Shown here piece after piece: positions 3,001-6,000 of a stretch of 7,640 nucleotides of DNA. Made by a program: the position numbers. Numbering within the stretch: the first letter of the stretch is position 1; every line of letters begins with the position of its first letter. Origin of the DNA: a virus (taxonomy: Duplodnaviria > Heunggongvirae > Uroviricota > Caudoviricetes); the IMG/VR virus record IMGVR_UViG_2703718860_000003, positions 1 through 7,640 of that record; one strand, given 5' to 3'.

Positions 3001-6000
3001 TCCGTCAGGCTCCCTTATTCCGAACGCCCACCGCGTCCGTCCCGCACATTCCAGCAGCGCATCTGGAGGTAACGTGCGGGTATTACTTCGACCTGTTCTG
3101 GTACCGGAACTCGGGATGGTGCTCCTTAAGCCGGGCCGTGAATCAATGTCAGCATTCCATAACGGCAGAATATTGGTGGAGCCGGAACCGAAAAACATGC
3201 GCGGTCTGCCGTCCGGAGTCGTTCCTGCCGTTCGCCAGCCGCTGGCAGAGGATGAAACATTACTGCCATTTTTCAGCGATGAGCGGGTTGTTCGTGCAGC
3301 AGGTGGTGCAGGTGCACTGTCTGACTGGTTATTACGTCACGTGAAATCCTGCCAGTGGCCACACGGCGATTATCATCACAGCGAAACAGTCATTCACCGT
3401 TACGGTACCGGCGCGATGGTGTTGTGCTGGCACTGTGACAACCAGCTGCGCGACCAGACATCAGAATCACTCGATCAACTTGCTCAGCAGAATCTGGTTG
3501 CCTGGATGATTGACGTCATCCGTCACGCAATAAGCGGCACGCAGGAGAGGGAGTTATCACTGGCCGAATTATCCTGGTGGGCGGCCTGCAATCAGGTGGT
3601 GGATGCACTACCTGAGGCAGTAGCGCGTCGTTCGCTGGGATTACCGGTGGAAAAAATCCGCTCCGTATACCGTGAGAGTGACATCGTACCGGGAGAACAG
3701 ACAGCCATCAGCATACTGAAGCAGCGCACAAAAAATATTGCGCTGCCACTTCACGTCCACCAGCAACAAAATCCACCACAGAAAAAAACGGTTGTCAGTA
3801 TCGCCGTTGATCCGGAGTCTCCTGAATCGTTCATGAGGCGGCCTAAACGTCGCCGTTGGGTTAATGAGAAATACACGCGCTGGGTAAAGACACAGCCGTG
3901 TGCGTGTTGTGGTAAGCCTGCTGACGATCCGCATCACCTGATTGGTCATGGTCAGGGGGGAATGGGGACAAAGGCCCACGATATTTTCACGCTACCGTTG
4001 TGCCGGGAGCACCACAACGAACTTCATGCAGACCCGCTGGAGTTTGAGAAAAAGTACGGCTCTCAGATTGAGTTAATTTTTCGTTTTCTTGATCACGCCT
4101 TTGCGACTGGCGTGCTCGGGTAAAAGAGGTGACTGATGCTCATAGATTTGGTTTTACCTTACCCGCCGACGGTGAACACTTACTGGCGACGCCGTGGCAG
4201 CACATATTTTGTATCAAAAGCCGGGGAGCGTTATCGCCGTGCAGTGGCGCTTATTGTTCGCCAGCAGCGGCTGAAATTAAGCCTGTCCGGACGGCTGGCA
4301 ATAAAAATTATTGCAGAGCCACCGGATAAGCGTCGTCGTGACCTGGACAACATTCTGAAAGCACCGCTGGATGCGCTGACGCATGCGGGAGTGCTCATTG
4401 ATGACGAGCAGTTTGATGAAATCAATATTGTACGTGGTCAGCTTGTTCCTGGTGGTCGGCTGGGTGTGAAGATTTACAAAATTGAGAGTGAGTGAGCGTA
4501 AATATGATATATCCGGAAATTACAGGCAAAAGCGGCGAACATTTACGCCTGAACACGCTGGAAGCAGTCTGGATCCAGGGGAAATTACGGATGTGGGGGC
4601 GGTGGTCGTATATCGGTGGGGGTAAATCCGGAAATATGTTTAACCGGTTACTGGTTTCGAAAAAGCTGACGAAAACAGCAGTTAATGAAGTTTTACGCAG
4701 AATGAAGAAATCCGGGCTGGATAAACCGGAACTTGAGGCATTTTTTCGGGATATGACCAGAGGGAAGCAGAAGAGCTGGTTGTCACATTGTACAGACACA
4801 GAGGCGTTGATTATTGATCGCGTTATCAGTGAGGTGCTTGGGGAATATCCCGGACTAATCAATATTCTCCGGCAAAGGTACGAAGGACGGGGAATGAGCA
4901 AACTGAAAATGGCCGAAAGGTTAAATGCAGATCATCCTGAGTGGACGTTGGTTACGTGCAGACGCCGAATTGATCAGTGGTTGGGGATATCTGAATTTAT
5001 GTTACATGCCCCCATGCGTATGGCTTTTGTTACAGAGAAAAAAATGTTGCAAACTGATCAATAAACTGCTTCAATCCGTATAAGCTTCGCAAGGCTGTAT
5101 CGCGAGGCGAAACGCAAGTTTTTTCGCACAAGGAAGCCACCGGAAGGTGGTTTTTTTGTGTCCGTAATATACAGCAGCGCAATAAATTCGCTGGTGGTTA
5201 TTAATACCGTTCTTTCAGCTTGCTGGCTTTTTCGACAAGAGTTATTGGTGTGTCACGTTAACCGGAAAAGGGGAAAAGACATGCTGAAACAGCAGGATAT
5301 GACAGAAACCGCCAGAGTGGTGTTTAATGAATTAAGCGTCACCGAACCGGCGACAGTCGGGGAGATTGCGCAGAATACGTACCTTTCACGCGAACGCTGT
5401 CAGTTAATACTGACCCAGCTTGTTATGGCGGGTCTGGCAGACTATCAGTTCGGTTGTTACAGACGCCTTCAGTCCTGAAGGCTTTTTTATTTGTGGTAAA
5501 TGGGCGGCTGGTGGGTGTTAGGGGCACTCACCAGCCATCTGCTCATGCGTCCGGATCACAAGCAAACCTCAGGCCCACTGCTTTGCGCAAAAGCAGAATG
5601 AGCCTATCAGAGAAGTGCTTATTGATCTATGGCTAATACTGTAAAAATATCCAGTTGTGAGTTAATCAACGCCGACTGCCTGGAATTTATCCGGTCGTTA
5701 CCCGAAAATTCTGTTGACCTGATAGTCACGGATCCGCCGTACTTTAAAGTGAAGCCTGAGGGCTGGGATAACCAGTGGAAGGGCGACGATGATTACCTGA
5801 AGTGGCTGGACCAGTGTCTTGCGCAGTTCTGGCGGGTGCTGAAACCTGCCGGAAGTCTTTACCTGTTCTGTGGCCATCGCCTGGCATCTGATATCGAAAT
5901 CATGATGCGTGAACGCTTCAGTGTGCTGAACCATATTATCTGGGCAAAGCCGTCCGGACGCTGGAACGGGTGCAACAAGGAAAGCCTGAGGGCGTATTTC

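Follow-up and report, generated by a model that had tools for sequence, protein, structure and literature searches.

The stretch of DNA analysed here (hereafter the window) covers 7,640 nucleotides, positions 1 to 7,640 of the IMG/VR virus record IMGVR_UViG_2703718860_000003 (Caudoviricetes), and contains a gene for a 349-amino-acid (aa) protein of the DUF968/YdfU type with two clusters of Cys and His residues. The source region is the nin-to-stx part of a Stx2-converting lambdoid Escherichia coli prophage, and its megablast matches are Stx2a phages and chromosomes of Shiga toxin-producing E. coli (STEC). In an E. coli chromosome that is 99.5% identical, the RefSeq gene order begins with replication protein P, DUF4406, Hok/Gef, a 90-aa 'GIY-YIG family' protein and DUF968, and continues with RusA, DUF1133 (antiterminator Q), a DNA methyltransferase, three tRNAs, Stx2A and Stx2B. 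The features of the window are listed in Table 1. The upstream open reading frame (ORF), the DUF968 gene, rusA and Q are densely packed, with stops and starts coupled or nearly so, and no terminator-like site was found between the upstream ORF and Q in the window. The upstream ORF and the DUF968 gene are probably translationally coupled, the stop of the former lying 1 nt before the start of the latter, and the rusA ATG at 4136 is 12 nt past the DUF968 stop codon.

Table 1. Features of the window and of the DUF968/YdfU-type protein encoded in it
Feature	Position	Strand	Basis or remark
sok-family RNA	2329-2478		Rfam match, 104.6 bits
hok (Hok/Gef)	2419-2631	+	Pfam E 1e-22
90-aa ORF upstream of DUF968 gene	2800..3072	+	PHROG_1212 match (unknown function)
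Shine-Dalgarno sequence GGAGG	3064..3068	+	5 nt before GTG 3074; direct sequence reading
DUF968/YdfU-type gene, 349 aa, GTG start	3074..4123	+	Pfam, PHROG, RefSeq
N-terminal domain, aa 1-160	3074..3553	+	unannotated; no detectable relative outside the family
N-terminal Cys/His cluster, aa 93-123	3350..3442	+	probable Zn site C93, H101, C118, C121
Middle helical region, aa 161-224	3554..3745	+	first half of Pfam DUF968 model; conserved LSxxELxWWA motif
Low-confidence linker, aa 225-245	3746..3808	+	length varies among homologues (alignment indels)
Basic motif RRPKRRRW, aa 255-262	3836..3859	+	K258 invariant, P257 nearly so
HNH / His-Me finger core, aa 274-320	3893..4033	+	Zn staple C276, C279, C310, H313
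rusA, Holliday junction resolvase	4136..4495	+	Pfam RusA E 3e-16; own AGAGG Shine-Dalgarno sequence
Antiterminator Q (DUF1133 / Phage_antitermQ)	4504..5064	+	RefSeq-equivalent start 4504; mechanical ORF from 4492
Strong terminator-like hairpin with T-run, 3' of Q	5465-5482	+	candidate tR'
N6/N4 DNA methyltransferase	5629-6687	+	
Three tRNAs	6728-6979	+	anticodon-CAT, Arg-TCG, Arg-TCT
stx2A	start 7071, runs off window end (7640)	+	

The reading frame proposed for the gene in the initial annotation of this DNA coincides with RefSeq, which gives a 'DUF968 domain-containing protein' identical coordinates in the 99.5% identical prophage. Three possible starts had been put forward, of which the GTG at 3074 and the ATG at 3116 are present, whereas the codon at 3149 is TCA and the actual third candidate, an ATG, is at 3146. 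GTG 3074 is the correct start because the PHROG_96 alignment begins at residue 1, the first 20 residues are conserved and a start codon is conserved in 82 loci of other species, with ATG, GTG or TTG at the equivalent position. These 20 residues (MRxLL…LGxVxLKPG) are recognizable in homologues down to 24% identity and are modelled as β-strands with a predicted local distance difference test (pLDDT) score above 90. The protein scores 258.5 bits against Pfam DUF968 (PF06147; threshold 27.8, E 4e-77, aa 160-346, model positions 1-171 of 171) and matches PHROG_96 ('HNH endonuclease') over its full length (E 2e-173). It has no match to Pfam DUF1364 (YbcO) or NinG, and NCBIfam holds no model for a DUF968-type protein.

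This is an ordinary and very common prophage gene, among the commonest in E. coli, found in many Stx2 phages and present in K-12 as ydfU. We matched it in 84% (4541 of 5426) of complete E. coli genomes, at up to 8 places per genome, and a whole-library HMMER search gave 3187 representatives at E ≤ 0.001, many of them full-length relatives 27-58% identical. Published fusion proteins join DUF968 to Erf, Rad52 or RusA (PMC4118853, PMC5714182). A further set of in-frame fusions, in which the N-terminal 150-300 residues of DUF968 are joined to portal, capsid, tail-tip J or tail-fibre domains (P0126, P0146, P0173, P0185, P0192 and P0243), was rejected as an architecture; their simplest reading is that they are deletion scars joining the nin region to late genes in decaying prophages.

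The initial annotation described a C-terminal Cys/His pattern and a second Cys/His cluster about 100 residues into the protein. All elements of the C-terminal pattern are present (C276-A-C278-C279, H287-H288, G295-G296, L309-C310, H313-H314 and H318), with the correction that the gap from the HH pair to the last His is three residues rather than two, and the second cluster is real, consisting of C93, H97, H101, H102, H108, C118, H120 and C121. When the protein was shuffled, 7 of its 8 Cys fell within two 45-aa segments in 114 of 2000 shuffles (p ~0.06), and the maximum density of Cys plus His was reached in 38 of 2000 (p ~0.02). Clustering in the single sequence is only marginally unusual, and conservation is the decisive evidence. 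In an alignment of 35 full-length homologues (24-79% identity), C93, C118 and C276 account for three of the seven invariant columns, and the remaining ligand and catalytic positions are 74-100% conserved. An AlphaFold model built from 35 diverse homologues has a mean pLDDT of 87.5, with values below 50 in the disordered stretch at aa 225-242. We divide the protein into the N-terminal domain (aa 1-160), the helical middle region (aa 161-224) and, beyond a flexible linker that closes with the basic RRPKRRRW motif (aa 225-262), a C-terminal ββα-metal (HNH) domain (aa 263-349); this large three-part architecture is kept down to 24% identity. Family membership, the fold and the conservation of ligand and catalytic residues are established.

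For the C-terminal cluster, fold, motif and profile evidence all bear out the earlier suggestion of an HNH/His-Me finger. The model shows an HNH-like ββα unit at aa 285-288, 306-309 and 311-319, the ββα-metal fold of the His-Me finger superfamily, and matches in the fold comparison of this domain include McrA, followed by Cas9 HNH domains. The nuclease centre of the core is made up of H287, H288, D303, H314 and H318. H288, the presumed general base closing strand 1, is found in 32 of the 35 homologues, the presumed helix metal ligands H314 and H318 in 31 each, and D303 in all 35. Four predicted zinc ligands (C276, C279, C310 and H313) flank the ββα unit, as in the zinc-finger subclass of HNH domains. 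Sequence searches of all PDB chains, with the whole protein and with the 35-sequence profile, gave nothing at E ≤ 10, and comparisons of folds and of profiles with one another were required to recognize the link to Ref and YbcO. In the profile comparison, hhalign gave 94% for Gp16, 81% for YbcO and 76% for Ref, the Ref profile similarity having E 2.4e-5. Direct BLASTP comparison of the window protein gave E 5e-10 for ΦNM1 Gp16, in which 'LCREHHNE[L/Q]H' is nearly identical, and E 1e-5 for P1 Ref. Gp16 itself lies above the Pfam DUF968 cut-off (29.1 versus 27.8). This RecA-dependent nickase (PMC12817073) is, among characterised proteins, the nearest in sequence to the HNH core. Its mutagenesis-tested residues comprise a zinc finger (C148, C181 and H184) and a nuclease centre (H157, H185 and H189) (PMC12817073), and these align one-to-one with C279, C310 and H313, and with H288, H314 and H318, of the window protein. 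Every mutated Gp16 residue is matched, and the complete catalytic set H287-H288-D303-H314-H318 (HHDHH) is intact in 31 of the 35 homologues. We read the C-terminal cluster as a genuine HNH domain. The HNH assignment of DUF968 is already published and annotated and is not new: its zinc-finger HNH motif was described by Curtis et al. 2014 (PMC4118853), and DUF968 together with DUF1364/YbcO forms group 7 of the His-Me finger superfamily, with YdfU named and RusA and Q listed as neighbours (Jablonska et al. 2017, PMC5714182). The new content of our analysis is a conserved N-terminal C3H site in an orphan domain, a residue-level link to two RecA-linked nucleases, and the variability of RusA adjacency.

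The N-terminal cluster lies in a 160-aa domain that had no relative in BFVD or in profile searches of Pfam and PDB, no significant match in a fold search, and no similarity to λ Orf/YbcN or the Gp16 N-terminus. We also considered an Orf/NinB-like (RAGNYA) N-terminus, as published for Gram-positive 'DUF968'/HNHc_6 proteins, and rejected it for the enterobacterial type, no similarity having been found. Four positions in the alignment show the behaviour of metal ligands: C93 and C118 are each present in 35 of 35 homologues, position 101 is Cys in 21 and His in 13, and position 121 is His in 27 and Cys in 8. The resulting ligand quartets are CCCH (21 homologues), CHCC (7), CHCH (6) and CNCC (1), never CCCC, and Cys occurs at 121 only where 101 is His or Asn, a pattern that resembles a compensated swap, although the sequences are not independent phylogenetically. 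Nearby, W119 (34/35), D122 (32/35) and N123 (23/35) are also conserved. We read the cluster as most likely a structural zinc site within a domain not described before. Since four ligands are retained in 34 of 35 homologues, catalytically dead members included, and conservation is higher here than in the zinc staple or the catalytic centre of the nuclease, the N-terminal domain appears to be important in its own right, for instance in targeting or in binding a partner. Neither Pfam nor PDB nor BFVD contains this domain with its C3H site, and it merits a family definition.

In the model, the N-terminal site also sits on a ββα unit (strands at aa 105-110 and 113-118, helix at 119-125), with C93 and H101 before strand 1 and C118 and C121 at the junction of strand 2 and the helix, which is the layout of a zinc-stapled His-Me finger. 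Three weak alignments point the same way and share the same register: an hhalign match between the profiles of the N-terminal and C-terminal parts (P 0.039), a BLASTP high-scoring segment pair between the N-terminal site and the Gp16 HNH domain (E 0.045), and an alignment of 'LCWHH' with 'LCRWHH' of Ref (P 0.004 over 12 columns). The residues expected of a second catalytic His-Me finger are poorly kept, with H108 in 5 and H102 in 16 of the 35 homologues, and D122 and R126 stand where the C-terminal helix has H314 and H318. On this evidence it is about an even call whether the site is a degenerate, non-catalytic duplicate of the His-Me finger, and very unlikely that it forms a second active site.

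To place the gene in context we surveyed 82 loci (±4 kb), of which 80, each from another species and most of them from Enterobacterales, were fetched with an alignment of a 13-sequence subset and two were reached through metagenomic homologues; RusA was located by iterated hidden Markov model search, and the direct neighbours of DUF968 were identified by Pfam scan of cluster representatives. The initial annotation saw DUF968 and RusA as a nucleic-acid processing pair. Their adjacency in the window is genuine, but a fixed pair overstates the relation: RusA lies directly downstream of DUF968 in only 3 of the 82 loci; in 19 it overlaps DUF968 or is the adjacent upstream gene, in 34 it is found upstream at a distance of up to 1.5 kb, in 1 it is farther upstream than that, and 25 loci lack it within ±4 kb. 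An obligate DUF968-RusA gene pair is rejected by these counts. In 56 of 82 loci a same-strand RusA gene is next to DUF968 or no more than 1.5 kb away, every RusA found is on the DUF968 strand, and the two genes share the nin module and often travel together. Directly 3' of DUF968 the usual neighbour is antiterminator Q, represented by three unrelated Pfam families (PF06530, PF03589 and PF06323) among the representatives; a DUF1133-type Q, judged by similarity to that of the window, is found in 11 of 82 loci. DUF968 invariably follows the replication genes and precedes Q, from which at most one gene separates it, and thereby occupies the slot held by NinG/NinH in λ. An analogous arrangement, ybcO-rusA-ylcG-quuD, is present in the DLP12 prophage. 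In one distant locus (L005), a 112-aa protein encoded directly 3' of DUF968 (1112-1450, + strand) has weak similarity to DUF1064 and phage endonuclease I and a PD-(D/E)xK-like 'DFLV…HEVKG' motif, and may replace RusA as the junction resolvase there.

These positional data bear on three other accounts of the gene. It might be a selfish, homing-type HNH endonuclease, a mobile cassette that cuts DUF968-less phages at a specific site and spreads by repair with no role in the phage's own DNA metabolism. Phage HNH genes are often mobile, which calls for caution in inferring a role from gene position (PMC12315714), and the genes flanking DUF968 are mosaic. Even so, we hold homing to be quite unlikely, given the conserved position before Q in 82 loci from ~80 species, the large three-part architecture kept despite divergence to 24% identity, the prevalence in complete E. 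coli genomes noted above, often in multiple copies, the lack of any intron or intein context, and the retention of the rest of the protein by catalytically dead variants. Packaging is a second possibility, with the protein acting as a terminase-associated HNH enzyme that stimulates cos or pac cleavage, in the manner of HK97 gp74. Genes of that kind adjoin terminase genes, whereas the window gene lies between replication genes and Q and DUF968 is an early-region gene; one related locus (L004) even has a separate small HNH gene beside terminase in addition to DUF968. We regard this account as highly improbable.

The third account is a nuclease directed at the host or at competitors, either in host shutdown or in prophage defence against superinfecting phage or plasmid DNA. 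Several observations on relatives lend it some weight: Gp16 arrests host replication and condenses the nucleoid, P1 Ref is reported to raise ciprofloxacin lethality in lysogens (PMC4713147), and a strong Rho-dependent terminator upstream of Qin ydfU has been placed in a group of terminators to which the silencing of toxic prophage genes is ascribed (PMC9160355). Against it, the protein matches no PADLOC defence model, its gene is part of a lytic delayed-early operon and not in a moron position expressed during lysogeny, and DUF968 is co-located with recombination genes. We consider such a target unlikely, if slightly less so than homing.

The explanation that best fits these findings, and that we hold to be reasonably probable, is that the YdfU-type DUF968 protein of the delayed-early nin operon is an HNH nuclease acting on phage recombination or replication intermediates in the RusA pathway. 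Its parts differ in strength: metal binding and nuclease activity are likely, whereas action specifically on recombination or replication intermediates is evenly poised. Under this scheme, a structural zinc ion held by C276, C279, C310 and H313 would staple the β-hairpin to the helix of the HNH domain, H288 would serve as the general base, and H314 and H318, with H287 and D303 nearby, would hold the catalytic divalent metal. The enzyme would then be a Mg2+/Mn2+-dependent ββα-Me nuclease, probably a nickase like Gp16 and Ref, that during lytic growth nicks or cuts the DNA of recombination or replication intermediates and shares a pathway with RusA. DNA contacts may be made by the helical middle region and by the basic RRPKRRRW motif, which in an alignment with P1 Ref falls on the last part of the basic N-terminal segment of that protein, and the N-terminal zinc domain may confer specificity, the N-terminal and middle regions together targeting the enzyme to a substrate or partner.

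A number of findings weigh against this explanation or parts of it. Four of the 35 homologues (P0197, P0213, P0219 and P0253) lack the catalytic His residues while keeping both Cys/His quartets, and nine (P0167, P0181, P0198, P0215, P0223, P0227, P0232, P0233 and P0255) lack the C-terminal zinc ligands (CT[S/R/H/C/A]x) while keeping the full HHDHH set, leaving the C-terminal quartet CCC[C/H] intact in 26 of 35. Neither catalysis nor the zinc staple is thus universal in the family, which falls into three types: the canonical one, including the window protein, one with intact catalysis and no zinc staple, and a catalytically dead one with both quartets. The window protein scores below the threshold of Pfam HNHc_6, the family of ΦNM1 Gp16 and ΦETA Orf20 (PF16784; 23.1 versus 26.6 bits, aa 271-320 only), and has no match to Pfam RecA_dep_nuc (PF16786) at E ≤ 0.01. 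RusA is missing from the 25 surveyed loci counted above. The initial annotation had called the family uncharacterised, and our literature search agrees, having found no experimental study, biochemical or genetic, nuclease assays included, of any DUF968 or YdfU protein. Finally, Gp16 needs both of its halves for RecA binding, and its Orf/NinB-like half has no counterpart in the window protein.

The catalytically dead homologues could also be taken to mean that the protein is a non-catalytic DNA-binding or regulatory factor, in which the His-Me finger and the N-terminal zinc site serve solely for binding, either to DNA or to a partner (RusA, Q or a replication protein, for instance). Consistent with this, the four dead members retain both quartets, one DUF968 member is annotated as a phage transcriptional regulator, and the catalytic centre is less well conserved than the N-terminal site. 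The window protein itself and 31 of the 35 homologues nevertheless keep the full HHDHH set with the spacing of active enzymes, and we judge a purely binding role to be improbable.

Comparison with described systems shows how this protein differs from its relatives. The K-12 Qin YdfU (PF06147, PHROG_96) belongs to the same family and has the same 349-aa length and three-part architecture, and related loci of K-12-like strains encode proteins 84-85% identical to that of the window. The Qin-like loci L007-L010 have a 250-260-aa ORF downstream, a PF03589 Q in the cluster representative L008, and no RusA; in the window, RusA stands between DUF968 and a DUF1133-type Q. YbcO of DLP12 (DUF1364, PDB 3G27) is a 96-aa stand-alone finger without the 260 N-terminal, middle and linker residues of the window protein. 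P1 Ref (RecA_dep_nuc, PDB 3PLW) has only a disordered basic N-terminus, unlike the two folded upstream regions found here. The ΦNM1 gene for Gp16 is an early phage gene like that of the window, and ΦNM1 encodes RusA ~3 kb downstream, but the N-terminal half of Gp16 is Orf/NinB-like, whereas the N-terminal 245 residues of the window protein are without similarity to Gp16, YbcN or any PDB fold. Lambda Rap (NinG) shares both the slot, late in the nin region before Q, and the superfamily (PMC4118853, PMC5714182); it is a branch-specific endonuclease that processes recombination intermediates, the role we propose for DUF968, although its domain architecture differs.

Guidance by RecA is a possible extension of the proposed mechanism. 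It is a concrete possibility because P1 Ref and ΦNM1 Gp16 are both RecA-stimulated or RecA-dependent nucleases, but the absence of the Gp16 Orf-like half means that RecA dependence is not simply transferable, and we consider it conceivable though doubtful. A more specific proposal is that the N-terminal 160 aa form an undescribed zinc-binding domain, possibly an ancient dead His-Me duplicate, that targets an HNH nickase to RecA filaments or branched DNA; we offer this speculatively, as somewhat less probable still. If it were true, YdfU-type proteins would join P1 Ref and ΦNM1 Gp16 as a third class of phage nuclease guided by RecA or by structure, and by far the most widespread one. As the RecA-linked relatives Ref and Gp16 affect antibiotic lethality and host replication, the idea provides a specific and cheap hypothesis in a model organism. 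It may also bear on the induction and replication of Stx phages, both of which are RecA-dependent.

A genome-wide association study of STEC reported that ydfU_1, ybcQ_1 (a Q antiterminator), a mokC allele and stx2B are associated with haemolytic uraemic syndrome (PMC11950266). The window carries the same kinds of gene together, namely a ydfU-type DUF968 gene, a Q antiterminator, a hok-family module and stx2. Because these genes are co-located, the association of the ydfU allele is most simply read as linkage to the Stx2a phage and not as functional evidence.

From 5465 to 7640 the layout of the window is that of the late region of a Stx2 phage, with the hairpin, methyltransferase, tRNA and stx2A features of Table 1; the anticodon-CAT tRNA is called Met by ARAGORN and Ile by RefSeq. 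The nin region also contains an inserted hok/sok type I toxin-antitoxin module (2329-2631, + strand). The 90-aa ORF upstream of DUF968 is named 'GIY-YIG nuclease family protein' by RefSeq, and its Pfam GIY-YIG match is partial and sub-threshold (E 0.068, model positions 25-68 of 78), with the GIY/YIG hairpin missing; 12 of the 82 surveyed loci have a homologue of this ORF directly 5' of DUF968. Should the RefSeq name be correct, the upstream ORF, DUF968 and rusA would form a run of three nuclease-type genes. Farther upstream, at 632-937 (+ strand), the window encodes a DUF4406 protein (Pfam E 3e-37) with weak similarity to nucleoside 2-deoxyribosyltransferase (E 0.0057), and a member of the DUF4406 family is also found directly upstream of DUF968 in the related locus L004.

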